NCBI GenBank assembly: GCA_964359735.1
Contig: CAYHTZ010000002.1
Location: 22,937-86,936 of the forward strand
Source: an uncultured Candidatus Saccharibacteria bacterium
GTDB lineage: Bacteria; Patescibacteriota; Andersenbacteria; UBA10190
Direction of reading: 5' to 3'
DNA length: 64,000 nucleotides
Part shown: positions 39,881-56,066 of the stretch, piece by piece
How the letters are laid out: every line of letters begins with the position of its first letter
How positions within the stretch are numbered: position 1 is the stretch's first letter
Notes under the pieces: model-generated
Database searches by the model: none
What the model was told of the DNA's origin: nothing
Seen by the model: only the letters and a program-made list of their open reading frames with translations
Translations under genes and position numbers: made by a program

Positions 39881-40501
39881 ATGTTTATGAATTTTGAGAA
39901 TGTTGCCCGCAGTACGATTGTGTTCGTAGTCATGCTTGCTATGTCGGTGAGCACAGTGAGCGTGGCGTCGGCTGAGGTTCTCACGCCTCGCGAGCCGATT
40001 CCCGCTCCAGCGCCAGGTGCGGGAACCGTAGAGCTTCTTCCACCTCCGAAGGTGCAGACGCCAGAGCTTTTACCCCCGCCGAAGGAAGTTCCACGCGGTC
40101 CTGTCAAGGTTAAAGCGGATGACCCAAGGGTGCGAGAGATTCTCACTAGACAATTCAAGGATCTCGAGGAGAAAATTCCTTCTATAAAAGATCCTCGCTT
40201 GCAACAGCTGGCCTGGGAAGGATTCTTGGCCCGTTTGCAGCGGTGGTACAGTGTGAACTGTGATGCAAAAACAGGCGAAGCAAAGAATAGGAATCCAGTG
40301 ACCACGGCGAATTGTGCTGCGGTGAAAGAGCTCATTCGACAGGTGCAAGGGAAAATCTCGTGGCTCCAAGGAGTAATTGATAAGAGGGTTGCCATGGTGA
40401 CCCCGCTGCCGGTGCCGACAACTGTGGTTTCAACTTCAAGTAATACTTCAGATGCTCAAGTCCTCGCGAGTATCATGAGTGAAATCGATCTCGTGCTGTA
40501 A
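39881..40501 (+). CDS. Secreted Pro-rich protein, paralog of the 39109 gene.
   Basis: Signal peptide MFMNFENVARSTIVFVVMLAMSVS, PAPAPG...LLPPPK repeats, and a conserved upstream GTCTGTTGTACA motif. Confidence 0.45.
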   Translation: MFMNFENVARSTIVFVVMLAMSVSTVSVASAEVLTPREPIPAPAPGAGTVELLPPPKVQTPELLPPPKEVPRGPVKVKADDPRVREILTRQFKDLEEKIPSIKDPRLQQLAWEGFLARLQRWYSVNCDAKTGEAKNRNPVTTANCAAVKELIRQVQGKISWLQGVIDKRVAMVTPLPVPTTVVSTSSNTSDAQVLASIMSEIDLVL

Positions 40502-40524
40502 GATAAGAGCTTACGTTTATGCTA

Positions 40525-40552
40525 AAGCGCCCACGCACCGTGGGCGCTTTTT
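40525..40552. terminator. Bidirectional rho-independent terminator between convergent genes.
   Basis: AAA-GCGCCCAC-gcacc-GTGGGCGC-TTTTT: an 8-bp GC stem flanked by A-runs and T-runs. Confidence 0.65.
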
Positions 40553-41597
40553 ACGATCCGAATCTGGCGACGCAGAGATTGTACTGGTCAATTTGGGCGT
40601 TGAGTTGGTTGGCTAGATCAATCAGCTCATTGTTAATAGCGTTGAGCTGGTCAATGAAGCTGTTGTAGGCTGAGCGGCGCTCTTCAATTTTTGGTTCCAA
40701 CTCGCGGGCTTGGTTGTGCAGAGCTTCGCCTTCCGCCCACAGCCGCTCGGCTTCTTCTTGGTCACCCCGGCGCGCGGCGGCGTTACCCTCTTCAATTTTT
40801 TGGTTACCTTCACGCACTAAGCGATCGTGCTCGGCAATCAAGCGTTCCAGCTCAGCTTGGGTGCGGTCGAGTTCTACTTCAATTTGCTCAGTGAGGGCTT
40901 TCTTTTGATCAAACTGTTGGCGCAGCGTGGGCGAAGGGCCGGGGCAAGCGGAGGAAGGAGTGCCGAAGGTTTGCACGGCCAGCCAGGTTTGCTCACCTTG
41001 GAAAGTGCCTTGAGCTGTCGCGACACCTATTTCCGCAAAATGTTGGTTCAGAATATTAGCGCGGTGGCCGGGGGAAGACATCCAGGCGTTCACCAAAGCA
41101 GCATCTCCGGCGAAATTCCCCAGCGCTAAGTTTTCGCCGACGGCGATGTAGGCGTAGTTGGTATCCTCCACCCAATCGGCGGGCCCGCGTCCGTCGGGGC
41201 CAATGTGGTCGAAGTACTGTTTTTGGAACATGTCGTTCACCTTGGCCTGCGCGGCTGCTGCCAGCTTGGCGTTGAGAGGGAGAGCGGGTAAGCCCGCCTC
41301 AGCGCGGTGGCGGTTCGTTTCCGCAATGGTGCCAGAGGCGGTAAGCGTTTGTGCCGGCGCATCAGTGCGGCCGCGCAGCGGACCGGGAGTGGTAATTTCA
41401 GTGACGGGTTGCTGAAGTACAGGGAGAGATGGTAGGGAGATACCTTGCGGCAAACTTACATTGGGCAAGTTGTTGGTAAGTTCACTCAGCTTGCTATTCA
41501 GTAAACTGTTGGGGTCTTGCCACTGCTGCACGCCTACACCCACACCACCGAGAATTACGGCGAGTAACACTAGTAAAACGATGACGCGCCCGAACAT
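40551..41597 (-). CDS. CAP/SCP/PR-1 superfamily secreted protein with a C-terminal coiled-coil.
   Basis: N-terminal TM/signal segment; CAP motifs (HRAEAGLPAL, GENLA, SSPGHRANIL, FAEIGVA); a Glu/Arg/Leu-rich heptad tail. Confidence 0.7.
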   Translation of the reverse strand: MFGRVIVLLVLLAVILGGVGVGVQQWQDPNSLLNSKLSELTNNLPNVSLPQGISLPSLPVLQQPVTEITTPGPLRGRTDAPAQTLTASGTIAETNRHRAEAGLPALPLNAKLAAAAQAKVNDMFQKQYFDHIGPDGRGPADWVEDTNYAYIAVGENLALGNFAGDAALVNAWMSSPGHRANILNQHFAEIGVATAQGTFQGEQTWLAVQTFGTPSSACPGPSPTLRQQFDQKKALTEQIEVELDRTQAELERLIAEHDRLVREGNQKIEEGNAAARRGDQEEAERLWAEGEALHNQARELEPKIEERRSAYNSFIDQLNAINNELIDLANQLNAQIDQYNLCVARFGS

Positions 41598-41635
41598 ATG
41601 GTGTAGTTATACCTCAGAGTTTGGTGCTTGACTAA

Positions 41636-43558
41636 TTGTCAAAAAGTGATAATTTAGCAGGCTTACATATGGTAATGATAGGTACCACTCTTGGTCACTT
41701 TCTGACGGTCAACTTCTTGTATTTTGCCCTGTCTTTTGCCTGGGCAGTCGCCTTGCTCTCGGTGCGTAACCTCGTGCATGTATCGTGGACTGATCGGAAA
41801 GAGCTCGTTCTTCTTTCTGTCTCACATCTGGGCATTCTGGGGCTTAGTTACCTTTTTCACGAATTTAGCCCTCTCCTTTTCTTTTCTACTTTTATTAGTT
41901 TGCTTTTTCTGGGAATGAGCTCACGGTTTCTGTCTGGCTACACGTGGGCGGGAAAGTATTTCTTCACTTCAAACTTCTTACTGTTCTTATTCGGTCTCCT
42001 GTGGAGCTTCTGGTTCATTCTCACTATCCCCGTCAGTCCGCTGACCCGCGGTCTTATGCTCGTAGTGGCACCACTCCTGCTCTTAACTCTGCCGAGCAGT
42101 GTCGTGCAGTTCTTGGAACAGTTTGAAGTCCTCTGTCGCAAACGTTGGGTGCGGCCCCGGTTTTCTTTACCGAGCGAGCCTCGGATGAATTATCCAAAAA
42201 TTTCCTTACATGTTCCGATCTACGCTGAGCCGCCTGAGCTGGTAACGGAAACACTGAATGTCCTATCGCGCATAGATTACCCCAACTTTGAAGTCTTGGT
42301 GGTGGATAATAATACAAAGGACGTGGACTTATGGAAACCGGTTGAGCGGCATTGCCGCACCCTTGGGGAGAGGTTTAAGTTCTTTCATGTTGACCCTCTG
42401 GCAGGTGCCAAGGCCGGGGCTTTGAATTTTGCACTCACCAAAACTGCGCCCGATGCCGAAATTGTCGGAGTGATAGACGCCGACTACCAGGCTCAACCAG
42501 ATTTCTTGAAAGCACTGGTGGGATACTTTGACGATCCCAAAATGGGCTTTGTCCAGACGCCGCATGACTACCGGGCTTGGGAGAATAACGCTTACCTGCG
42601 TATGTGCTACTTTGAGTATAAAATTTTCTTTCACACCACTATGGTTAGTATCAATGAGCGCGATGCGGCTCTGACGGTGGGTACTATGTGCTTGATTCGG
42701 AAAAGTGCGCTGGAGCAGGCTGGTGGGTGGGCGGAGTGGTGTGTAACTGAAGATTCGGAATTGGCCATTCGTATCCATGCCATTGGGTACTCATCGGTTT
42801 ACTTAACCCAATCGTTCGGGAAGGGCCTGATTCCTGAGACATTCGCCGGGTATAAAAAGCAGCGCTACCGCTGGACGGCGGGCCCCGTTCAGGAGTTCAA
42901 GCATCACTTTAACCTTCTGATGCTTTGGCCTTGGCGTACGCCTTCGCTGCTGACTGTGGCTCAGCGGATCCATCATTTCAACCATGGGCTGGATCGGTTC
43001 ATTGTGGGCTTGGGACTCCTTCTCACACCCTTGGGGCTCGCGGTAATTGGCTCAATGGTGTTTCACCACGAAGTTGTTCATGTGCCTTTCGAATTGTGGT
43101 TAGGAGCCACCGTGTTGTTAGTATCGAGCATCTTCTTACACTGGATGTTGTACAAGGTAACGCTGGGAGCTTCGTTAAAGAATACGGTGGGAGCCCTGCT
43201 GGCTAGCAAAGCGCTCAGCCATGTGATTTCGATTGCGAGTTTCAAAACGATTTTGAGAACCCAAACGCCGTGGCATCGAACAAATAAGTTTACCGTGGCT
43301 TCGACGTTCGGGAGAGCATTATCGGCGGCAAAAGTGGAGCTCCTGTTGGGTGTCGCAATCCTGGCGCTGGTGGTGGTTGCTTTTATGCAGCTGCCTCTAC
43401 CGGGGCTCTTGCTAATGTTTCTGATTGGGATGAGCTATAGGGGGTTAGCGTACCTGGCTGCACCGTTGCTGGCGCTCATGGCAGAGATGAACATCAAGAA
43501 ACTGGCGACAGCTGTGGATAATTCCTCTCGCACAAGTGGTGTCGTATTCGCAGAGTAG
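41636..43558 (+). CDS. Processive family-2 glycosyltransferase (cellulose/chitin-synthase-like) with N-terminal and C-terminal TM domains.
   Basis: YPNFEVLVVDNN...VIDADY...Q(KQ)RYRWTAG carries the D, D, D, QxxRW signature. The start could be the internal Met at 41669. Confidence 0.7.
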   Translation: MSKSDNLAGLHMVMIGTTLGHFLTVNFLYFALSFAWAVALLSVRNLVHVSWTDRKELVLLSVSHLGILGLSYLFHEFSPLLFFSTFISLLFLGMSSRFLSGYTWAGKYFFTSNFLLFLFGLLWSFWFILTIPVSPLTRGLMLVVAPLLLLTLPSSVVQFLEQFEVLCRKRWVRPRFSLPSEPRMNYPKISLHVPIYAEPPELVTETLNVLSRIDYPNFEVLVVDNNTKDVDLWKPVERHCRTLGERFKFFHVDPLAGAKAGALNFALTKTAPDAEIVGVIDADYQAQPDFLKALVGYFDDPKMGFVQTPHDYRAWENNAYLRMCYFEYKIFFHTTMVSINERDAALTVGTMCLIRKSALEQAGGWAEWCVTEDSELAIRIHAIGYSSVYLTQSFGKGLIPETFAGYKKQRYRWTAGPVQEFKHHFNLLMLWPWRTPSLLTVAQRIHHFNHGLDRFIVGLGLLLTPLGLAVIGSMVFHHEVVHVPFELWLGATVLLVSSIFLHWMLYKVTLGASLKNTVGALLASKALSHVISIASFKTILRTQTPWHRTNKFTVASTFGRALSAAKVELLLGVAILALVVVAFMQLPLPGLLLMFLIGMSYRGLAYLAAPLLALMAEMNIKKLATAVDNSSRTSGVVFAE

Positions 43559-43848
43559 AAGAGCAACACAAACACATATGACTGGGAGGGAAAGGCCGAA
43601 CCACTTTTGCGGCTTTTTCTTCCTGTGGTATAGTGGAGGGCTAGCATAAAAATAAACACTTGGTCAGGGGGATCGATTTTTTTGTGTATCCCTCGCCAAG
43701 ATGTTTTCTCCTTCAGTAACTGAATGTATGACAGGCCAGCGGCAAGCTGGCTTTGTTTTGTTTAGCCCAGCTGTCGCTCACTGCGTGAGCTATGGCGGGC
43801 AAGGACTTTTGAAAAAACATTATGGTGTCTTGAAGGGAGGTGAGCGAT

Positions 43849-44454
43849 ATGAATAAGCGAATTGTGCTTTCTAGCATGTCCATCTTCGCCTCGCTCGCCT
43901 TGGTCACCGGTGCCACCTTTGCATTCTTTAGTGATGTAGGGACGAGCAATGACAACGTGTTTGCAGCGGGAGATCTTACTCTACAACTTGATGACGACAA
44001 TGAGCCGACATTCGCAACTAACGATGACACTGTGACAGCTTCATTTGGTGCTAGCGACATGGCACCAGGTGACTCAGTAACAGATTTTGTGTCTCTTCAC
44101 AATGGTGGCTCTATCGACATTGCTGAGATCGAACTTGGCGCGAATAAGACTGCTGGTGATGATGCTTTGGCTGATGAATTGCATCTGACTGTCTTAACGG
44201 GCGCTGACTCAGCTTGTACAGGTGGAACTGATCATACTTCTGCCATCAACACACAAATTGGAGGTGGTGTAGGTCCTCTGACCCTAGCTGAGCTGATTGC
44301 TGCTGACTATGATGCCCTACCCGGGCTCGCTGTGGGGGCTGACTCCTTTATGTGCTTAACCACTGAATTCGATGCGACCGCTGGTGATGCACTGCAGGGA
44401 ACTTCAATAACAGTTGATGTGGTATTCACTGCTCATCAGGACGCAAGTCAGTAA
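43849..44454 (+). CDS. TasA/CalY/camelysin-like secreted protein with a SipW-cognate-type signal peptide.
   Basis: MNKRIVLSSMSIFASLALVTGATFAFFSD is a SipW-cognate signal. NVFAAGDLTLQLDD resembles the start of mature TasA. Good GGGAGGTGA Shine-Dalgarno sequence. Confidence 0.6.
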   Translation: MNKRIVLSSMSIFASLALVTGATFAFFSDVGTSNDNVFAAGDLTLQLDDDNEPTFATNDDTVTASFGASDMAPGDSVTDFVSLHNGGSIDIAEIELGANKTAGDDALADELHLTVLTGADSACTGGTDHTSAINTQIGGGVGPLTLAELIAADYDALPGLAVGADSFMCLTTEFDATAGDALQGTSITVDVVFTAHQDASQ

Positions 44455-44533
44455 TCTTCTTAGTTAAAGCCGGTGGCTCGTTGTAATTGGGCGGGCACCG
44501 GCTTACGGACGGGGAAATTCTTAAGGATAGAAA

Positions 44534-45934
44534 TTGCTTAAACAAGCCACAAATTTTGGAGTGTGGGTAGTGAGCGGTGCGCTGCTCTTCGGTGCACTGG
44601 GCATTGTGCTGTTCGCCACGCCGCTTTTAGGGAATCGCGCGTTAATTGTCCGCTCGGGTTCGATGGAGCCGGCAATTAGCGTAGGAGATGTGGTAGTCGT
44701 GCGGCCAGGGGAATACCAGGCGGGAGATGCCATTGCCTACAACGTTCCCGGTAAGGAGAACATGGTGGTCACCCATCGCGTTCAAGAAGTGCGGGAGGGC
44801 GCAACAGGGTTTGAGTATGTTACCAAGGGGGATGCGAACCCGGAGGCAGACAGCTGGGTGGTTACTGGTGGAGATATTATTGGTGAAGAGCTCTTCACGG
44901 TGCCGTGGGTGGGGACACTGCTCGCCTTTGCCAAATCAAGAATTGGCTTCGTGAGTTTGGTAGTGATACCAGCGCTGGTGGTGGTGTTAAGCGAGATACG
45001 TGTGATTTGGCGAGAGATGAGGAAGAAGGTACCCACCTTCGCCACCCTTCGACCCCGAGCTCAGGGCCGAGGGGAGGCCACGGTGGGCAGGCCGGTGTTG
45101 GAGAGAGGAAATCCACCCTTAGTCTCTCCTTTATCAAGGAGGGAAACAGTGGACTCCTCCCTTGATAAGGGGAGACAGGGAGGGATTTCTTTGCCCAAGC
45201 CAGTGTATATGTCGACGCTCTCCTTTGTCGGCAATTCTCCTCCACAGAGACGCACGTTTGTAGATGGTGTGGTGAGAAGGAGCATGAGCTTTGCCTTAAT
45301 TGTGGTGGCGGCTTCGGTCATGACCCCAGCCACATTTGCGCTGTACGCAGACAGCGGCACAAGTTCGAATAACGTATTTACGGCGAGCGACGATTTTGGG
45401 GTTGGGCCAGGTGATGTGGTGATCAATGAAATTATGTGGATGGGTACAGACGAGGGTCCACATGACGAATGGATTGAATTGCGTAACATGACGAGTGATC
45501 CTATTGACCTGACTGGTTGGACGCTCCTGAATGCAGGAGGTGGCGGCAGTTCGTCTGATGACATTACTTTATCGGGGACGATTTTGGGTGATGGTTACTG
45601 GCTATTGGGTAACAATAATTCCGCGAGTTCAGCGATTGTTAATACTACAACTGTTGATCAGGTCACAACAAATGTTGAGCTAAGTAATGGAGGAGAACAG
45701 CTCACACTGAAGGATCCTGGTGGATTCACTATTGATGCTAGCCCTGTGACCAGTGGTTCTTGGCCGCTCGGAGATAATAGTTCTGGGCAACAATCGATGT
45801 CGCGTAACCTTACTCCGGGTGATGGGATTGTTGTGAGTAATTGGCACACATGTACCGATGCGGCGTGTAACGACACGACATATTGGGATGCAGAAGGGGA
45901 CGATTACGGTACTCCTAAGGCGGCGAATCTATGA
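44534..45934 (+). CDS. sipW: SipW-type (S26B, archaeal/eukaryal-like) signal peptidase I, continuous in-frame with a second module: a TasA-like N-terminal region plus a lamin-tail domain that carries its own SipW-cognate-like signal starting at 45284.
   Basis: SGSMEP catalytic Ser box and a C-terminal TM (residues 1 to about 165). A linker then contains the in-frame hairpin repeat (45124-45174). MSFALIVVAASVMTPATFALYADSG...NVFTA follows, then VINEIMW...DEWIELRN...LTGWTL, a lamin-tail domain. Confidence 0.65.
   Translation: MLKQATNFGVWVVSGALLFGALGIVLFATPLLGNRALIVRSGSMEPAISVGDVVVVRPGEYQAGDAIAYNVPGKENMVVTHRVQEVREGATGFEYVTKGDANPEADSWVVTGGDIIGEELFTVPWVGTLLAFAKSRIGFVSLVVIPALVVVLSEIRVIWREMRKKVPTFATLRPRAQGRGEATVGRPVLERGNPPLVSPLSRRETVDSSLDKGRQGGISLPKPVYMSTLSFVGNSPPQRRTFVDGVVRRSMSFALIVVAASVMTPATFALYADSGTSSNNVFTASDDFGVGPGDVVINEIMWMGTDEGPHDEWIELRNMTSDPIDLTGWTLLNAGGGGSSSDDITLSGTILGDGYWLLGNNNSASSAIVNTTTVDQVTTNVELSNGGEQLTLKDPGGFTIDASPVTSGSWPLGDNSSGQQSMSRNLTPGDGIVVSNWHTCTDAACNDTTYWDAEGDDYGTPKAANL
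45124..45174. repeat. Two hairpin elements of the same family lying in the SipW / TasA-like-LTD junction; read in-frame they encode SPLSRRE...LDKGRQGG.
   Basis: CTCTCCTT-tatc-AAGGAGGG and CTCC(T)CCCTT-gat-AAGGGGAG. Confidence 0.5.
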
Positions 45935-46977
45935 GGAAAGTACTGACAAGAATTCTGGGATTAGCTGTAGTGCTGGGAACCATTTGGTTCGGGGTGACAC
46001 ATGGGAATTTCTTGGCGCCGGTGGGTACGGCGTTTGCGGTCGGAGACCTCCTGATTGATTGGAACGTGCCGGCGGGGGATCCAATTTTTGTGGTGAATGA
46101 TTTCGCGCCGGGGGAAATGGAAAGCAGGAATGTCGAAGTGACTAACAGCGGGACCATCCCGCGCGAAGTAGGCGTGCGCGGAGTGCAAACGGGAGGCCTG
46201 GGAGCGCTGGAGGGTGTACTTGAGATCACGATTTCTGAAGGAGTAACGGATTTGTATGGCGGCACGAGCAGTACTGGCACGCGCACTTTGAGCCAGTTCT
46301 TTACGGATAGTACTAACCCGAATGGCATTACCTTGCTGACCGTTGACCCAAGTGAAACGGTAGTCCTCACCTTTAAGGTCAAGTTTGCGGAGTCTGCTGG
46401 GAATGAATTCCAAAACGCGAACGTGGTATTTGATATTACTCTTGGCATTACGGGGGAAGTGGCTGGGATACCAGCAGAGTGCGCGCAGATTGATTTCGCG
46501 GGCGACCCGATCTTTGGAACAGACTCGGGTGACCTGCTGCGCGGTACGGCTGGGAATGATCTGATCTTTGGATTAGAAGGCGGGGATGCAATTTACGGCA
46601 ACGGAGGCGATGACTGTATCGTTGGCGGACCGGGCCCAGATTACATTAACGGGCGATCAGGTAACGACGTGCTGCTTGGAAATGAAGGTCCGGATGCGTT
46701 GCTTGGTGAAGGAGGCAACGATGCCATGTTTGGGGGTACAGAAAACGATAGTCTCGAGGGCGGGTCTGGCAATGACACCGGCCGAGGAGGCGAGGGCAGC
46801 GATAGTTTCAGAGGTGGAGATGGGACTGATGTAGGGTTTGGGGAGGCAGGCAATGACGGTTTGCGCGGTGGGGTGGGTAACGATCAGCTCTTTGGCGTCG
46901 CGGGTCAAGACGCCGCCCAGGGCGATAGCGGAGTGGATACGTGCGAGGCGGAGGCGAAGACAGCCTGCGAGCTGTAA
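45931..46977 (+). CDS. Secreted protein with a TasA-like N-terminal region and C-terminal RTX-type calcium-binding nonapeptide repeats.
   Basis: Signal/TM then TAFAVGDLLIDWN. Tandem GGxGxDxUx repeats (GTAGNDLIFG, GGDAIYGNGGDDCIVGG, GNDVLLGNEGPDALLGEGGNDAMFGG). Confidence 0.6.
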   Translation: MRKVLTRILGLAVVLGTIWFGVTHGNFLAPVGTAFAVGDLLIDWNVPAGDPIFVVNDFAPGEMESRNVEVTNSGTIPREVGVRGVQTGGLGALEGVLEITISEGVTDLYGGTSSTGTRTLSQFFTDSTNPNGITLLTVDPSETVVLTFKVKFAESAGNEFQNANVVFDITLGITGEVAGIPAECAQIDFAGDPIFGTDSGDLLRGTAGNDLIFGLEGGDAIYGNGGDDCIVGGPGPDYINGRSGNDVLLGNEGPDALLGEGGNDAMFGGTENDSLEGGSGNDTGRGGEGSDSFRGGDGTDVGFGEAGNDGLRGGVGNDQLFGVAGQDAAQGDSGVDTCEAEAKTACEL

Positions 46978-47001
46978 GTGAGGGGTGTACACTCGGGGGA
47001 T

Positions 47002-48030
47002 ATGTGGCTCAGGCAGTTATCAGTTTTTCTTTTCCTGGCAGTAGGTGTCTGGGCTGGTTTGCGCATGGTGCGGACAGCCCTCTCGTCCACGTGCGTATCT
47101 CGGACCGTGTATGTGGCTCAGAAAGGAAGAGATCAAGAAGGGTACGGCTCAAGTAAAAAGCCGTACCAGACGATCGGGTATGCGCTCGCGCGGGCCACGC
47201 CGGGTACCACCATTGTGGTGAAGTCGGGAGTATACCCTGAACATCTTGTCACCACGCAGAACGGGGCACCTGGCTGCTCCATTACGCTGACTGGCTCGGC
47301 GAAGCTCACGGGAGGTGCAGAGAGCGGGCGCATCTTTGAGCTGATGCATGACTACTACGTTATTCGCGGCCTTGAGTTCACCGGCAAAGATGTCCTGTTG
47401 TGGATGCAGGAAGCTGACTACAACACCATCGAAAAAAATTTCTTTCACCATGCACAGGGGGAATGTGTACGGGCGAAGTACCACTCGAGCCACAATACGT
47501 TTGTAAGCAACAGAGTTGAGAATTGCGGAATAGCGGATTTTGTTCAAGGCGGCGGAGGGAAAAACGGTGAAGGTATTTACCTGGGCACCGCGCCTGAGCA
47601 GCTGAATAAAAATCCTACGCCAGAAACTGATCAAACCAGCTTTAACGTAGTCCGCTCGAACACGTTTGTAACGAACGGGAATGAGTGTGTGGATATTAAA
47701 GAGGGTTCAGCCAGTAATGCGGTGGAGTACAACGACTGCACGGGACAGCGTGATCCCGAAAGCGGCGGGTTTGATTCCCGGGGGAACGATAACGTTTTTC
47801 GCTACAACAAAAGTTATGGCAATGGGGGAGCGGGTATTCGCTTAGGGGGGGATGCCGGTACAGATGGCATTCGCAACGCGGTGTATGGCAATACGCTTGG
47901 TGATAATGGTGGCTACGCCTTGAAAGTTATGCGTCTGCCGCAAGGGTTGATTTGTGGGAATGCGGCTTCGGGTAATGCGCTTGGTTTCACGAACGAGCCC
48001 TCGGTCACGAATCCACCGTGCGCTTTTTAG
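47002..48030 (+). CDS. Right-handed parallel beta-helix repeat protein (pectate-lyase/NosD-like fold), secreted.
   Basis: Signal/TM N-terminus and periodic NxxFxxN/G-rich beta-helix-like repeats. The start was set to an internal Met. Confidence 0.45.
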   Translation: MWLRQLSVFLFLAVGVWAGLRMVRTALSSTCVSRTVYVAQKGRDQEGYGSSKKPYQTIGYALARATPGTTIVVKSGVYPEHLVTTQNGAPGCSITLTGSAKLTGGAESGRIFELMHDYYVIRGLEFTGKDVLLWMQEADYNTIEKNFFHHAQGECVRAKYHSSHNTFVSNRVENCGIADFVQGGGGKNGEGIYLGTAPEQLNKNPTPETDQTSFNVVRSNTFVTNGNECVDIKEGSASNAVEYNDCTGQRDPESGGFDSRGNDNVFRYNKSYGNGGAGIRLGGDAGTDGIRNAVYGNTLGDNGGYALKVMRLPQGLICGNAASGNALGFTNEPSVTNPPCAF

Positions 48031-49958
48031 CTGCGTAGCGCCTCGATTGGCTCCAGCTTGGCAGCGCGCAGGGCAGGGTACGTGCCGGAGACGAGACCAA
48101 TGACACCGCCGACGAGGGGAGCAAGCAAGGGTACGGCCGGGTCGAGCACGGGGGCCCAGGTTTGGTAGGCAGAGACTGCCACCACGGTGAGGAGGCCGAG
48201 GCTGGCGCCGGCAGTTCCGCCGAGAAGGCCAAGGGCAGTGCTCTCGAGTAAGAACTGCAGGGCGATGTGTTGTTTGGTGGCGCCCAGCGCGCGGCGCAGC
48301 CCTATTTCCCCGACGCGTTCCATCACTGACACCAAGGTGATATTTGAGATCCCAAGAGCACCCACAATTAAGGAGAGGCCACCGAGCAAGAGTAGGAGGA
48401 TGTTGAGATTGCTCTGGATAGCTTCGCGCACACGCTTCGGTTCCGGGGGAAACGTAACGGCGACGGCCTTGGGGTCGTCTGGTTTGAGCGCGAGCGGGGC
48501 TTGGCGGGCGATCAAGGTGGCCGCGCCGATTTGGGTTTCAACAATGACGGAGGAGGGGCTCGTTAGCCCAAAATCGCGGCGAGCGGTGCCTTCAGGAATT
48601 ATAACGGAGCCGAGTAAGTCAGGCTGCCGACCAACGTTTCCCAGTATGCCTATGACCAGATACATCTGGTCGCCGATAGTGATGGCGGGTAAGTGCGACG
48701 TGCCCCGAACGTTTAAGCGTTCAGCGGCGGTAGGCCCAAGTACGGCCACGCGATCGGCACGGGCCGAGTGGCCGTCGTCGGGCAAGCGCCCCGTTTTAAG
48801 ATTGGCGCGGGCAGCGGCGAACGCTCTCGGGGAAGCGGCCTGGACGGCTAACTTGAAGGCTGTCTGCTGCTGTGGGTCTTGCACGGGGGAGGCAGAGACC
48901 AGAGCGTCTTTCGTATTCACAGGGCTCAAGGTTCCCGCGGCTACGACGCCGTTTAAGCGGGCCAAGCGAGCCGGCGCATCCCAGGGAATGACTTGATTAT
49001 GGGAAGTGGCGAGGGCGGCGCGTGGCTTAACTACAATCTCCGTGGCGGCTAGTTCATTAAACGTGCCGATGATGCGGTTGCCGGCGGTGCGGGAGATGCC
49101 AACGGTGGCTACGAGCGCGGTGATGCCGATCACAACACCAAGGGTGGTTAAAGCTGTGCGCGCGGGTTTGGCAAAAAGGCCGGCGACAGTTTCCTCAACT
49201 AGGTCTCGAGCTGTGATCCCTGACGGGGCTGCCTCTCTCGCGGGGCCGGTGGGTGAGGAGGCGCGCCGAGGTGCTGGGGAGCCAGAAGTATGCTCAGTGA
49301 GCCGCCCGTCGATGATCTCAACCCTGCGGCTGGCGCGCGCGGCCACCTTTTCGTCGTGGGTCACAATCACGATTGTGAGCCCGCGGCGGTTTAGACCTTG
49401 GAGAAGATCAAGCAGGCGCGCGGCCGAGGCAGAGTCTAGGTTACCGGTGGGCTCATCGCAGAGGAGAAGGTTGGGGGAGACGGCCAGGGCCCGGGCGATA
49501 GCGACGCGTTGGCGCTCTCCCCCTGACAATTTGGTCGGAGAAAAGTCGGCGCGGGCCTCGAGCCCGACTTCGCGCAACGCAGACAAAGCGCGGTCCCCAC
49601 GACCGTCTCGGGGATGACGGCGGTATACTTCGGCGAGCATGACATTCTCGCGGACAGAGCGGTAGGGCAGTAGATGAAACGATTGAAAGACAAAACCAAG
49701 ATGACGGCCACGCAGGCCGGCGCGCTGCTCGTCAGTGAGCGTGGCGGTATCGCGGCCGTGCAGCAGATACTGGCCAGAGGAAGGTCGATCGAGCAGGCCG
49801 ATAATATTCAGAAGGGTTGACTTGCCAGCCCCAGAGGGCCCGGTAATGGCCAGCCACTCTCCCGATTCAAGGCGCAGATTGATGTGCGTGAGCGCTTGAA
49901 CAGGTGGATCGCTGCCGAAGGTACGACCGATGTTTTTCAGTTCGAGTAAGGGTGTCAT
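48027..49958 (-). CDS. MacB-like fused ABC transporter (N-terminal ATPase plus FtsX-like permease with a large extracytoplasmic domain).
   Basis: ITGPSGAGKSTLLN Walker A, LSGGERQRVAIARAL signature, LLCDEPTGNLD Walker B, and a C-terminal four-helix FtsX domain. Confidence 0.8.
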   Translation of the reverse strand: MTPLLELKNIGRTFGSDPPVQALTHINLRLESGEWLAITGPSGAGKSTLLNIIGLLDRPSSGQYLLHGRDTATLTDEQRAGLRGRHLGFVFQSFHLLPYRSVRENVMLAEVYRRHPRDGRGDRALSALREVGLEARADFSPTKLSGGERQRVAIARALAVSPNLLLCDEPTGNLDSASAARLLDLLQGLNRRGLTIVIVTHDEKVAARASRRVEIIDGRLTEHTSGSPAPRRASSPTGPAREAAPSGITARDLVEETVAGLFAKPARTALTTLGVVIGITALVATVGISRTAGNRIIGTFNELAATEIVVKPRAALATSHNQVIPWDAPARLARLNGVVAAGTLSPVNTKDALVSASPVQDPQQQTAFKLAVQAASPRAFAAARANLKTGRLPDDGHSARADRVAVLGPTAAERLNVRGTSHLPAITIGDQMYLVIGILGNVGRQPDLLGSVIIPEGTARRDFGLTSPSSVIVETQIGAATLIARQAPLALKPDDPKAVAVTFPPEPKRVREAIQSNLNILLLLLGGLSLIVGALGISNITLVSVMERVGEIGLRRALGATKQHIALQFLLESTALGLLGGTAGASLGLLTVVAVSAYQTWAPVLDPAVPLLAPLVGGVIGLVSGTYPALRAAKLEPIEALRS

Positions 49959-52524: not shown

Positions 52525-52980
52525 ATGAAAAGTAGCTCCACCTATCTTGTCATTATTATTCTGGTAGCGCTCGGGCTGGCGGGATTTTTTTTGTTTGATG
52601 GGGAGCAAGCACCTCCCTCGCCGGATAGTCGTAAGATTCATAGTGATGGTAAAGCGGCCCAGGTTACGCCAATTCCGGGTACCGATAGGAAGGCTATTCT
52701 GCTGACGGAGCGGGCGGTGCAGCGGCTTGACATTACCACAGTGCCAGTGACGAGCGGACACAGTTTGGTTGTACCCTACGCCGCCGTGATGTATGACACC
52801 GATGGCAGCACCTGGGTCTACACAAACCCGGAGCCTTTGCGGTATGTCCGCCACCACATTGAAGTAGACCGCATCGAGGGAGACCAAGCCATTCTGTCGG
52901 ATGGTCCTCCTATTGGCACGGCCGTGGTGACGAGGGGGGCGGCCGAGCTGTTCGGAGTTGAATTTGGTGTAGGTAAATGA
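52525..52980 (+). CDS. Small membrane-anchored protein resembling the C-terminal beta-barrel domain of RND membrane-fusion adaptors (mini-adaptor candidate).
   Basis: N-terminal TM plus a roughly 110 aa domain ending HHIEVDRIEGDQAILSDGPPIGTAVVTRGAAEL. Translationally coupled (ATGA) to the downstream RND gene. Confidence 0.35.
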   Translation: MKSSSTYLVIIILVALGLAGFFLFDGEQAPPSPDSRKIHSDGKAAQVTPIPGTDRKAILLTERAVQRLDITTVPVTSGHSLVVPYAAVMYDTDGSTWVYTNPEPLRYVRHHIEVDRIEGDQAILSDGPPIGTAVVTRGAAELFGVEFGVGK

Positions 52981-55900
52981 TGCGGGCAATTGTCGCGGTC
53001 AGCTTGAGGTGGCGCTGGCTCGTGGTGGCGGTCGCGGCGGTGGTGATGTTGTACAGCCTGGACACCGTTGCCGACATGCCTATCGATGTCTTTCCCGAAG
53101 TCGGCCCGCCCTTGGTGGAAGTTCAGACTGAGGCTTTGGGGCTCTCCGCCACCGAGGTGGAATCTTTGATTACTGTCCCCATGGAGGCGGATTTGCTCAA
53201 CGGCGTGGCGTGGCTTGACCGGATCTACTCTGAGTCGGTGAGCGGTCTCTCGTCGATTCACCTCATTTTTGAAGAGGGGACTGACCCAATTGCGGCCCGG
53301 CAGATGGTGGCGGAGCGCTTGACCCAGGCCTTCGCCTTGCCCAATGTGTCCAAACCGCCGACCATGCTTCAGCCTCTGTCCAGCAGCAATCGGGTCATGA
53401 TGATCGGGCTTTCTTCGCAGGAAGCGTCGTTGATAGACATGTCGGTGCTGGCTCGGTGGAATATCAGGCCGCGGCTCATGGGTGTGCCGGGGGTGGCCAA
53501 CGTGGCTATTTGGGGGGAGCGGCAGCGGCAATTGCAGGTGCAGGTTGACCCAGTGCAACTCTCGTCTGCCGGCGTGACACTGGCACAAGTTATCGAAACG
53601 GCCGGGAATGCCTTGTGGGTATCGCCTTTAAATTTTTTGAATGCTTCCACACCTGGTACAGCGGGGTGGATTGACACGCCGAATCAGCGGCTTGGACTCC
53701 ACCACATCTTGCCTATCAGAGGGCCGGATGAATTGGCTCGTGTGTCAGTGGCCGGCAGCCAGGGGTTGCTGCTCAAGGACGTGGCTCGCGTGGTGGAAGA
53801 CCACCAACCGCTGATTGGAGATGCCGCCGTGCGTGACGGCGCCGGTCTTTTGCTCGTCTTAGAAAAGTTTCCCGGGGCCAATACGGTGGAAGTGACGGAG
53901 GGTGTGGAAGAAGCGATGGCGGTGCTACGGTCAGGGATGGCCGGTATTGAGATGGAGACTGTCTTCCGACCGGCTAACTACATTGAGCTGGCGACTGACA
54001 AACTCGTGCAAGCGGCCCTCTTGGGCGCGGTGTTTATGGCCTTGGTGTTGTTTGCTTTTTTGGAAGGCTGGCGTCCAGTTGTCATTAGTCTCGTAGTGAT
54101 TCCCCTGTCTTTGGCGGTGGCGGGGCTGGTGCTGTACGCCTTCGGACTCACTATGAATGTCTTAACTGCCGCTGGGCTCACGGTGGCCATCGGTGCGGTA
54201 GCTTACGATGCCGTCTTCGACGTGGAAAACGTCGTGCGGCGGCTGCGACAGCGTCAGCAGACGGGCAGCGGGCAGACGTCTGTCTCCACCATTGCCGCGG
54301 CCGCGCTAGAGATGCGCCGGCCGGCGGTTCTGGCAACCCTGATCATGCTGCTGGCGGTGCTGCCGGCTTTCTTTTGGCGGGGTGAGGCGGCTGCCTTCAT
54401 TTGGCCTCTGGGCATGGCCTATGTGCTGGCGCTCTTAGCCTCGGCGGCGGTGGCATTCTTTGTCACGCCAGCACTCTCTCTTATACTCTGGCGTCAAGGA
54501 GTGTGGCTGCCCAGGGTGTCTCCACTCATTCATTGGCTTAGGCAGCGTTACCGAAGTGGGCTCTCCCGCCTCATTGGGATTCGGTGCCAAGTATCGGGCG
54601 CGGCGGTCGCCGTGGGGATAGCTGGTCTCGCGATGCTGCCATTACTCCATTGGTCGCTTCTGCCCTCGCTTCAGCAGACGGACCTGGTAGTTACCTGGCA
54701 AGCAGCGCCGGGCACGTCGCGTACAGAAATGAACCGGGTTTTAACGGCCGCCAGCGGTGAGCTCTCATCCGTTCCTGGGGTTGCGCGTGCTTCCTTCCAT
54801 GTGGGGCGAGCCATAACCGGGGATCAAGTTGTTGGGACTAACTCAGGCGTGCTTTGGCTTAGCCTTGATGGCAAGGCGGACTTTGATGCGACGGTGGAAA
54901 AGGTTCGAGAGGTTATTTCCGGCTACCCCGGCTTTACGAGTGAGGTGCAGACGTACCAACCTAAAAGAGATGGCGAGAGGTTGAGCGTGGGCGATCGTGA
55001 CCTGGTGGCGCGCGTGTACGGCCACGACTGGGATGTTCTCCAGGTAGTGGCTAAGGATGTGCAGCAGCGGCTGGCACACGTTAACGGTATCACGGCGGCA
55101 TACGTGGAGGTCGGTGACAACGAGCCACAGGTGGAAATCGAGGTGGATTTAGCTCAGGCTCTGCGCTACCAAGTAAAGCCTGGCGATGTCCGGCGGCAAG
55201 CGGCGGCGCTCCTGTCTGGCCTGCAAGTCGGCAACCTTTTTGAAGAACAAAAAGTGTTTGAGGTGGTGGTTTGGGGTGTACCGGAAATTCGCGATAATGT
55301 GACTAAGGTCCAAGACCTCTTGATTGACACGCCCGCGGGTTCAGTACGTTTGGGAGATCTGGCGAAGGTGAGGATTGGGTCGTCTCCGGTGACGATTGCC
55401 CGCGATGCGGTCTCGCGTTATGTAGACGTGGTTGCCCAGGTGGATGGCCGGGATGCAGCCGTGGTCAGACGCGAGGGGAGGCGCGCTCTTACTGGTCTTG
55501 AATTTCCTCTGGAATACCGCGCGGAACTATTAGGCGAAGGCGCCGGGCAGACGGCGGCGGTGCAGCGCGTACTGTTGGTGGGCCTGGCGGCTGGAGTTGG
55601 AATTTTTCTGCTGCTGCAGTCAGCCTTCGGGAGCGCCCGAGTGGCGGCTATCTTTGTCTTGAGCTTGCCCTTGGCGCTGTTGGGCGCCGTAGCGGTGGCG
55701 GTGGCTACGGAGGGTAGCGCTGTCTCACTTGGTTCACTGTTGGGGTTGTTGGCAGTGTTGGGGGTGGCGGTGAGAGGTGGAATGGTAATGATTGCCCATT
55801 GGCAGCATCTTGAGCGGGAGGCTGGCCAGGCAGCTGACGGCGCCCTGATTATGCAGGGAGGCCAAGAAAGGGTGATACCTATTTTGATGGGTGCCTTCAC

Positions 55901-56066
55901 GCTGGGACTGGCATTCTTGGCCCCGGCACTTTCCGGCGTTGTCCCCGGCTACGAAGTTCTCCATCCAATGGGCCTGGTGGTAGTAGGAGGGTTGGCGACC
56001 GCGACGCTCATGACTCTGTTTGGTCTGCCCGTGCTCTACCTGCAGTTTGCCGGCCAGAAGCCATGA
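52977..56066 (+). CDS. RND-superfamily efflux permease (CzcA/CusA-like).
   Basis: 12-TM RND topology with two large loops; N-terminal MPIDVFPEVGPPLVEVQTEALGLSATEVESLITVPME matches the HME-RND pattern. Confidence 0.8.
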   Translation: MMRAIVAVSLRWRWLVVAVAAVVMLYSLDTVADMPIDVFPEVGPPLVEVQTEALGLSATEVESLITVPMEADLLNGVAWLDRIYSESVSGLSSIHLIFEEGTDPIAARQMVAERLTQAFALPNVSKPPTMLQPLSSSNRVMMIGLSSQEASLIDMSVLARWNIRPRLMGVPGVANVAIWGERQRQLQVQVDPVQLSSAGVTLAQVIETAGNALWVSPLNFLNASTPGTAGWIDTPNQRLGLHHILPIRGPDELARVSVAGSQGLLLKDVARVVEDHQPLIGDAAVRDGAGLLLVLEKFPGANTVEVTEGVEEAMAVLRSGMAGIEMETVFRPANYIELATDKLVQAALLGAVFMALVLFAFLEGWRPVVISLVVIPLSLAVAGLVLYAFGLTMNVLTAAGLTVAIGAVAYDAVFDVENVVRRLRQRQQTGSGQTSVSTIAAAALEMRRPAVLATLIMLLAVLPAFFWRGEAAAFIWPLGMAYVLALLASAAVAFFVTPALSLILWRQGVWLPRVSPLIHWLRQRYRSGLSRLIGIRCQVSGAAVAVGIAGLAMLPLLHWSLLPSLQQTDLVVTWQAAPGTSRTEMNRVLTAASGELSSVPGVARASFHVGRAITGDQVVGTNSGVLWLSLDGKADFDATVEKVREVISGYPGFTSEVQTYQPKRDGERLSVGDRDLVARVYGHDWDVLQVVAKDVQQRLAHVNGITAAYVEVGDNEPQVEIEVDLAQALRYQVKPGDVRRQAAALLSGLQVGNLFEEQKVFEVVVWGVPEIRDNVTKVQDLLIDTPAGSVRLGDLAKVRIGSSPVTIARDAVSRYVDVVAQVDGRDAAVVRREGRRALTGLEFPLEYRAELLGEGAGQTAAVQRVLLVGLAAGVGIFLLLQSAFGSARVAAIFVLSLPLALLGAVAVAVATEGSAVSLGSLLGLLAVLGVAVRGGMVMIAHWQHLEREAGQAADGALIMQGGQERVIPILMGAFTLGLAFLAPALSGVVPGYEVLHPMGLVVVGGLATATLMTLFGLPVLYLQFAGQKP

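Follow-up and report, generated by a model that had tools for sequence, protein, structure and literature searches.

TasA fibres are a model for filaments that assemble by donor-strand exchange without a chaperone or an usher, and both their initiation and their termination are debated. In Bacillus subtilis, with its tapA–sipW–tasA operon, the 11 residues of TasA that lie just after the SipW cleavage site (residues 28–38) form a donor strand which completes the next subunit, and the first strand comes from TapA, in which a similar N-terminus is attached to a complete immunoglobulin (Ig) fold (PMC9674648; PMC10151520). Residues 44–57 of TapA suffice for biofilm formation, and tapA and sipW are coupled by overlap (PMC10151520). 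The TasA site is T-W-A/A-F (the slash marking the cut), and an aromatic residue at P2′ sets SipW substrates apart (PMC10269814). Here we compare with this operon a locus in a 64,000-nucleotide (64,000-nt) stretch of DNA, referred to throughout as the window, from an uncultured Candidatus Saccharibacteria bacterium (GTDB lineage Bacteria; Patescibacteriota; Andersenbacteria; UBA10190; assembly GCA_964359735.1, contig CAYHTZ010000002.1, positions 22,937–86,936). Positions 43849–48030 of the window hold four open reading frames (ORFs), all in the same (+) orientation: gene 1, for a TasA-like subunit; gene 2, in which a SipW-like signal peptidase and a lamin-tail domain (LTD) share one frame; gene 3, for a protein with a TasA-type fold and RTX repeats; and gene 4, for a β-helix protein (Table 1).

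Like the B. subtilis operon, the locus places a dedicated peptidase of the archaeal/endoplasmic reticulum type beside a subunit of the TasA/camelysin fold and an accessory protein whose N-terminus mimics a donor strand; it also shares the coupling of peptidase and accessory by stop–start overlap (in split relatives of gene 2) and a T-x-A site with an aromatic P2′. Unlike that operon, it has the gene order tasA-like, sipW, accessory; the accessory is fused to the C-terminus of the peptidase through an extra loop and transmembrane (TM) helix, and its globular domain is an LTD whose sequence bears no detectable relation to that of TapA; the third partner, which joins the TasA fold to RTX repeats, is without a Bacillus counterpart; and the host is a Patescibacteria bacterium. 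The initial annotation of the window had proposed a TasA-type fibre locus built around SipW and its modular partners, and the comparisons below support that description; everything on which it drew is present as stated: its coordinates, an SGSMEP box, a Met inside the frame at 45284, and inverted repeats at 45128–45171. We think it rather probable that this is the Patescibacteria version of tapA–sipW–tasA, in which a peptidase fused to a TapA-like initiator processes itself and primes a polar fibre.

The product of gene 2 has three membrane helices, and comprises a SipW domain, a positively charged loop, a signal-like third helix (TM3), a donor-strand segment and the LTD. Its residues 10–156 match TIGR02228 (archaeal-type signal peptidase I) with 100.6 bits against a cutoff of 51.85, the catalytic domain lying between TM1 (about residues 2–28) and TM2 (about residues 136–164). 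An alignment of 24 fused homologues shows no variation at Ser43 of the SGSMEP box (44660–44662), His81 (44774–44776), Asp100 or Asp106, and these residues, with the TIGR02228 score, lead us to predict an active enzyme. The equivalog model for Bacillus SipW (NF046067) gives 87.5 bits, below its cutoff of 190: the peptidase is SipW-like in role and class, and is not an orthologue of Bacillus SipW. In an AlphaFold2 (AF2) model of the fusion the peptidase module has a predicted local distance difference test score (pLDDT) of 85–95, and helices occupy residues 2–28, 136–164 (pLDDT 74–96) and 242–272. At the other end of the protein, the LTD matches PF00932 with 50.4 bits (cutoff 34.3).

A frame of this kind might be due to a frameshift in sequencing or assembly, or to the recent loss of a sipW stop codon in a decaying locus, especially as the repeat elements of the connecting loop can mislead assemblers and many relatives have separate genes. 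However, a separate public record (GCA_038063215.1, contig JBBTVM010000105.1) is 99.96% identical to positions 40420–45860 of the window, with two mismatches and no gaps, so that the frame through 45029–45283 is reproduced and the SipW–LTD junction is the same in both. When 5.8 billion proteins were searched, no fewer than 34 clusters (those with names being called ‘signal peptidase I [Patescibacteria group bacterium]’) aligned over 92–100% of the fusion in one alignment, at 31–64% identity; the same architecture thus extends down to 31% identity, the catalytic residues being invariant, and the pattern over the clade agrees with this. Artefact or decay is, in our judgement, extremely improbable and effectively refuted, and the long reading frame is a real gene.

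The history of the fusion could be read from a scan for related loci, taking one genome per species, which gave 80 loci. Most of the named lineages among them belong to the Patescibacteria (Levy-, Roizman-, Gottesman-, Woese- and Curtissbacteria, WWE3, Saccharibacteria and Parcubacteria), and many automatically binned records of metagenome-assembled genomes are labelled otherwise, for example as ‘Gammaproteobacteria’. Peptidase and LTD form one ORF in 21 loci and adjacent ORFs in 45 (21/66 fused). On a tree of the peptidase domain (built by neighbour joining, and hence approximate), most LTD-carrying members of the window's clade are fused, and the sister clade has split genes with short signal–donor–LTD proteins; roughly four changes between fused and split states are needed over the tree. 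Where the genes are split, sipW has a stop of its own, which overlaps the downstream start as ATGA in seven of the ten loci examined, much as tapA and sipW overlap in B. subtilis, and a one-base change would suffice to fuse such a pair. We conclude that SipW and the LTD were joined long ago, out of two genes coupled in translation, and that the fusion has been conserved. The initial annotation had wavered between a former intergenic junction now read through and a genuine enzyme–substrate fusion. The latter is correct, given the spread of the fusion over at least 34 clusters and 21 loci, its invariant catalytic residues and the conserved internal cleavage motif described below; of the former, descent from two adjacent genes stands, and present-day read-through and a relic terminator fall away.

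The terminator had been suggested by two hairpins in the loop between TM2 and TM3. Among the 24 fused proteins this loop is 20–89 residues long (median 41.5), with a mean net charge of +5.5, and that of the window, with 89 residues by the same measure, is the longest among the homologues examined; its pLDDT is below 50 over residues 169–244. By the positive-inside rule the loop would be cytoplasmic, and TM3 would export the C-terminal part of the protein. The inverted repeats at 45128–45171 were confirmed, and the RNA of 45020–45290 has a predicted folding energy of −119 kcal/mol (z = −3.9). A search of Rfam with 44950–45350 gave nothing near any gathering score, and hence the hairpins correspond to no known RNA. 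They belong instead to a short dispersed palindromic element, of which the window holds a second copy inside an unrelated gene for a membrane protein, and both copies are read in the same frame of the element (NPPLVSPLSRRETVDSSLDKGRQGGI and NPLSPPYQGEKQTSSLDKGRMGGV). The consensus, of about 75–85 nt, is AACCCCCT..TCCCCCTTGTCAGGGGGA..CCTCCCTTGATAAGGGGAGG..GGAGGGGTT. No fewer than 119 metagenome stretches (L081–L199 of our collection), many of them from groundwater, contain its 19-nt core; they yield 68 distinct full-length elements, of which 17 lie within open frames 150 or more residues long, some frames reaching 600–900 residues, and most copies appear to be intergenic. The element is an insertion into a tolerant, predicted cytoplasmic loop, and accounts for the window's loop being the longest of its family. 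A relic terminator was rejected, because the genes of split relatives overlap and leave no intergenic space, and because the element is a dispersed repeat, translated in frame within a further gene of the window too.

Palindromic elements of Rickettsia are selfish palindromes found in frame within genes. The window's element, which we take to be reminiscent of them as a short dispersed palindrome tolerated in frame within coding genes, differs from them in sequence, in lineage (contigs of the groundwater Patescibacteria type) and in that most copies seem to be intergenic. The same loop holds a second, perfectly centred palindrome (45032–45087; 28-nt arms, 79% complementary, no spacer), which coincides with a 19-residue insert specific to the window, PTFATLRPRAQGRGEATVG, and of which no other copy was found within the window. 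The host gene of the second element copy encodes a polytopic membrane protein that resembles O-antigen ligases by appearance only, and possible weaker relatives of the element lie in it at 2419–2460 and, as a weak match, at 1677–1700.

TM3 resembles, in sequence, a SipW-cognate signal peptide placed within a protein. A hidden Markov model (HMM) built solely from the N-termini of free-standing TasA1-family proteins, with 480 shuffles as control, gave 28 bits on residues 251–284 (shuffle maximum 4.3), and in each of the 24 fused proteins its best match is to this one internal position. The SipW-cognate pattern sought in this segment, a hydrophobic region followed by T-x-A and [FYL][FY]xD...S..N.F, has its motif residues conserved, and the alignment of fused proteins retains both the hydrophobic segment and the motif around A269, D273, S277 and N280. 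The internal Met at 45284 leads into ...PATFA/LYADSGTSSNNVFTAS, and SipW-type cleavage is predicted after Ala269 (T-F-A/L-Y), which would leave a protein starting at Leu270 with LYADSGTSSNNVFTASDDF.... At this site all 24 fused proteins have T, A or S at P3, 23/24 have Ala at P1 and 17/24 an aromatic residue at P2′, a pattern that, as far as sequence goes, matches the site of SipW in TasA.

The same Met could in principle start a second protein, so that, besides or instead of the fusion, the ORF would yield a separate signal–LTD protein such as the split relatives make, and the AAGGAG that precedes the ATG at 45284 might seem to favour this. Yet Met251 is present in only 2/24 fused homologues; the AAGGAG is separated from the ATG by 1 nt, the usual spacing being larger, and is explained by the Arg codons of the n-region of the signal; the stable palindrome structure just upstream (z −3.9) would disfavour initiation; and the frame has been kept free of stops through a hypervariable loop in 21 loci. 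Production of two proteins from the one ORF therefore seems to us quite unlikely, and the internal start that had been proposed at 45284 is not borne out as a meaningful one.

If the module is exported and cut as predicted, its new N-terminus would resemble that of TasA. The segment LYADSGTSSNNVF maps onto TasA residues 28–39 (PMC9674648 for the TasA strand); fused homologues retain Asp273, Ser277 and Asn280, and F39 of TasA has its counterpart in Phe282. The TasA1 profile matches the fusion at residues 252–285 only, i.e. over the signal and donor segment, the remainder being LTD. The LTD module is TapA-like: it has a signal and a donor-strand segment and no TasA jelly-roll. With TapA it shares a SipW-type signal, a short donor-strand-like segment and a complete Ig-like β-sandwich unable to accept a strand; TapA can do without its globular part (tapA1-57 being enough: PMC10151520), and in the fused family that part is variable or absent. 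Throughout the fused clade, signal and donor segment are constant and the cargo may be an LTD, fn3 plus LTD, unassigned β-rich domains or simply a Pro/Thr-rich tail, which would parallel the sufficiency of TapA residues 44–57. TapA is, however, a free protein, the TapA family is not among the Pfam or NCBIfam matches of the fusion, and the likeness is one of analogous design rather than of demonstrated homology. In many split loci (L010, L016 and others), the gene after sipW encodes a signal, a donor strand, a TasA-like N-domain and an LTD; such a PF12389 plus PF00932 protein would be a polymerisable LTD-bearing subunit, unlike the donor-only module of the window.

Strand donation by the module to the TasA-like subunit, and hence nucleation, is suggested indirectly by this motif similarity and by covariation with the neighbouring gene. 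Across 39 loci, the donor segment of the module has an identity of 0.579 to that of the TasA-like protein encoded beside it, and of 0.461 to those of other loci (0/10,000 permutations); with variable columns only, the values are 0.437 and 0.288 (again 0/10,000).

A different use of the same segment must be weighed here, namely that TM3 is a permanent signal anchor and the LTD stays on SipW at the surface, as an adhesin or as a membrane tether for the base of the fibre. The fusion would then hold enzyme and LTD in a 1:1 ratio at the membrane, which recalls the finding that TapA is located at the membrane and no more abundant than SipW (PMC10151520); residues 242–272 form one continuous helix in the AF2 model, and cleavage after Ala269 is itself something that we infer. 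On the other hand, the small residues at P3 and P1 and the motif behind the cut are as well conserved in fused proteins as in the free-standing substrates of split loci, and an anchor has no need of them; cargo-free variants, consisting of donor segment and Pro/Thr tail only (L042, L054, L040), would make poor anchors; and steric hindrance would make it hard for a subunit to take up a donor strand that starts at the surface of the membrane. We regard an uncleaved anchor as a possible but rather unlikely arrangement, and return to a released, TapA-like initiator as the preferred reading.

The putative recipient of the strand is the product of gene 1, which matches Peptidase_M73 (PF12389, TasA/camelysin) with 51.6 bits (cutoff 22.5) and the SipW-cognate signal model TIGR04088 with 27.2 bits (cutoff 19); the profile of its family (alignment A3) finds B. 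subtilis TasA (5of1/8aur) over its full length with E of about 1e-9. Its signal peptide (residues 1–25, ending GATFA) has a predicted SipW cut at A25/F26; next come the donor-strand equivalent, FFSDVGTSNDNV (residues 26–37), and F38-A-A-G-D-L-T-L, with FFSDVGTSNDNV-F aligning with TasA 28–39. By these comparisons gene 1 specifies a complete TasA/camelysin subunit, with donor segment and acceptor fold. An alternative GTG start lies at 43840. The C-terminus of TasA forms an interface between subunits. In the family of gene 1 the residues right before the stop are a conserved (N/H)QD(A/S)SQ.

Gene 3 makes, to judge from its sequence relatives, the converse choice: a TasA fold without a donor strand (acceptor only), joined to an RTX β-roll. 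Its signal (residues 1–36, ending TAFA/VGDL) is followed by a TasA-like jelly-roll (about residues 37–180), RTX repeats (about residues 194–340) and a conserved Cys-rich C-terminus. The repeats match PF00353 with 75.5 bits and adopt the β-roll fold, which places the protein in the RTX family. Profile–profile comparison of the N-domain family with the TasA1 family gave 98.9% probability (E 1e-17 over 144 columns), and reciprocal HMM matches gave 3.9e-9 and 3.1e-10. The TAxA of the signal directly precedes the first core strand (VGDL...), and the HMM for signal plus donor segment matched 0/25 members of the gene-3 family. That family is large (more than 1,500 hits) and annotated merely as ‘calcium-binding protein’; in its alignment (A4), C184, C229, C338 and C346 and a C-terminal C-E-L are invariant, which suggests disulfides capping the β-roll. 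The order TasA-like, SipW (fused or not) with module, then TasA-fold-RTX protein downstream recurs in 22 loci. Of the three TasA-like substrates that the initial annotation had recognized, then, the first holds, as a complete TasA/camelysin subunit, the second is without the TasA fold and the third has the fold without the donor strand.

Like tip adhesins of the FimH type in chaperone–usher pili, gene 3 combines an acceptor fold lacking an N-terminal extension of its own with an extra functional domain, as befits the last subunit of a fibre built by donor-strand exchange (PMC9245690; PMC9674648), although its fold family is an unrelated one (the TasA jelly-roll), neither chaperone nor usher is involved, the extra domain is a C-terminal RTX β-roll and the terminal position is a putative one. 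It also resembles AbpX and other calcium-responsive matrix proteins of the TasA superfamily in linking that fold to calcium. The A3 profile matches AbpX weakly (E 0.001), and proteins of the AbpX type have signal-peptidase genes in their neighbourhood (bioRxiv 10.64898/2026.01.04.697558). However, the calcium sites of the AbpX type lie inside the jelly-roll subunit, whereas in the window a separate RTX β-roll is fused to a donor-less subunit.

The preferred reading may then be put together as follows. With the TM2–TM3 loop in the cytoplasm, TM3 would export the C-terminal module, and the cut after Ala269 would be made by the peptidase domain, either that of this molecule or that of one beside it, freeing an LTD protein of about 21 kDa that begins with a TasA-type donor strand. 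This protein would, as TapA does, donate its strand to the first gene 1 subunit and be unable to accept one, and because it could donate but not accept, it would serve as nucleus or cap at one of the fibre's ends. The gene 3 protein, with its acceptor fold, no donor strand and a calcium-binding RTX β-roll, would sit at the opposite end, and the fibre would then be polar, its ends carrying different modules. Going further, it is conceivable, though we hold this only tentatively and as somewhat doubtful, that the three-gene cassette works as a self-contained whole: the peptidase would be made as a pro-protein together with its initiator, every round of self-processing would free a single LTD primer, with a donor strand only, where secretion takes place, TasA-like subunits that both accept and donate would polymerize, the RTX protein would end the chain, and the fibre could perhaps bridge to host cells; if so, each end of the fibre would have a defined module of its own, the Ig-like LTD at one and the calcium-binding β-roll at the other.

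Several points weigh against this scheme. Its topology, the cut at Ala269, strand donation, fibre formation and polarity are all things that we infer. TIGR04088 did not match the internal segment at E ≤ 1, the custom HMM being the one model that did. The LTD segment keeps two of three hydrophobic donor positions (Tyr271 and Phe282), Ser274 replacing Ile32 of TasA. The covariation of donor segments is uncorrected for phylogeny, and could just as well reflect a shared peptidase specificity as a shared acceptor groove. Cleavage of gene 3 after Ala36 is deduced from the conserved TAxA motif only. Finally, the AF2 model is poor past residue 165 (mean pLDDT 61) and uninformative on docking in cis: docking of the cleavage site into the active site was sought in it, and the linker and LTD are too poorly predicted to show it.

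Table 1. Features of the SipW–LTD locus and of other parts of the window referred to in the text (aa, amino acids)
Feature	Position	Strand	Remarks
Gene 1, tasA-like major subunit	43849–44454	+	201 aa from ATG; PF12389, TIGR04088
Gene 2, SipW::LTD fusion	44534–45934	+	TTG start, single uninterrupted 466-aa ORF; TIGR02228 and PF00932
SipW-like archaeal-type signal peptidase I module	44534–45028	+	aa 1–165
TM2–TM3 loop, predicted cytoplasmic	45029–45283	+	aa 166–250; hypervariable, net positive, predicted disordered
Dispersed double-hairpin nested palindromic element, about 85 nt	45105–45190	+	In frame in the loop, encodes ...NPPLVSPLSRRETVDSSLDKGRQGGI...
Internal signal peptide (predicted)/TM3	45284–45340	+	aa 251–269, MSFALIVVAASVMTPATFA; custom HMM, AF2 helix 242–272
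TasA-type donor-strand-like segment of LTD module	45341–45385	+	aa 270–284, LYADSGTSSNNVFTA
Linker and lamin-tail domain cargo	45386–45934	+	PF00932 at aa 292–402; protein ends at aa 466
Gene 3, TasA-fold plus RTX β-roll protein	45931–46977	+	348 aa
Gene 4, right-handed β-helix protein, N-terminal hydrophobic segment	46978–48030	+	Beta_helix PF13229, 38.9 bits
Second element copy	2026–2119	−	Inside ORF 1524–2750 (−; 408-aa membrane protein)
CAP-domain secreted protein	40551–41597	−	Pfam; upstream neighbour
Polytopic GT2 glycosyltransferase, many membrane helices	41636–43558	+	640 aa; Pfam; directly upstream of tasA-like gene

The stop of gene 2 and the ATG of gene 3 overlap as ATGA on inspection of the sequence, and a scan of 43400–48300 for promoters and terminators yielded no more than shuffled sequence did. 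Gene 4, which had been counted with the locus, was rejected as a member of the cassette: tblastn found a homologue in 0/80 related loci, and no SipW-type signal was found in its product when one was searched for.

Upstream, the CAP-domain protein and the glycosyltransferase of family 2 (GT2) are possible matrix partners. The CAP protein has a long coiled-coil tail and recurs near the cassette, with homologues in 12/75 SipW loci (L008, L016, L017, L019 and others), four of them near full length at 39–45% identity. A paper on Roizmanbacteria mentions a secreted cysteine-rich protein beside an LTD protein (PMC6509639). The GT2 enzyme could be a processive synthase of matrix polysaccharide; its gene is not conserved beside the cassette elsewhere, weak matches occurring in two loci only. 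Downstream lie efflux-type genes (a MacB-like ABC transporter at 48027–49958 and an RND pump at 52977–56066). The GC content of the window, 49–62%, is high for Patescibacteria, and GC skew is positive in all 2-kb bins over the 64 kb.

The component families, and the logic of tapA–sipW–tasA, are already known, and the occurrence of PF12389 in Patescibacteria has been remarked on in the literature. Our searches found no paper on SipW with a lamin-tail domain, nor on TasA with Candidate Phyla Radiation (CPR) and signal peptidase; papers retrieved on LTD or signal peptidase in CPR bacteria, and on camelysin/TasA in Patescibacteria, do not describe the fusion, and no description was found of an LTD as an analogue of TapA, of the TasA fold in the RTX family or of the palindromic element. 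In annotation, the 466-aa ORF should stay one gene. A widespread natural fusion of a peptidase to a TapA-like initiator would speak, as independent genetic evidence, for a coupling of processing to nucleation, and the donor-less TasA fold in the ‘calcium-binding protein’ family, with its more than 1,500 hits, provides a candidate terminator or tip subunit. Patescibacteria mostly live attached to other microbes, as episymbionts, and to our knowledge few of their surface structures have been characterized; the cassette gives them a concrete, testable fibre.

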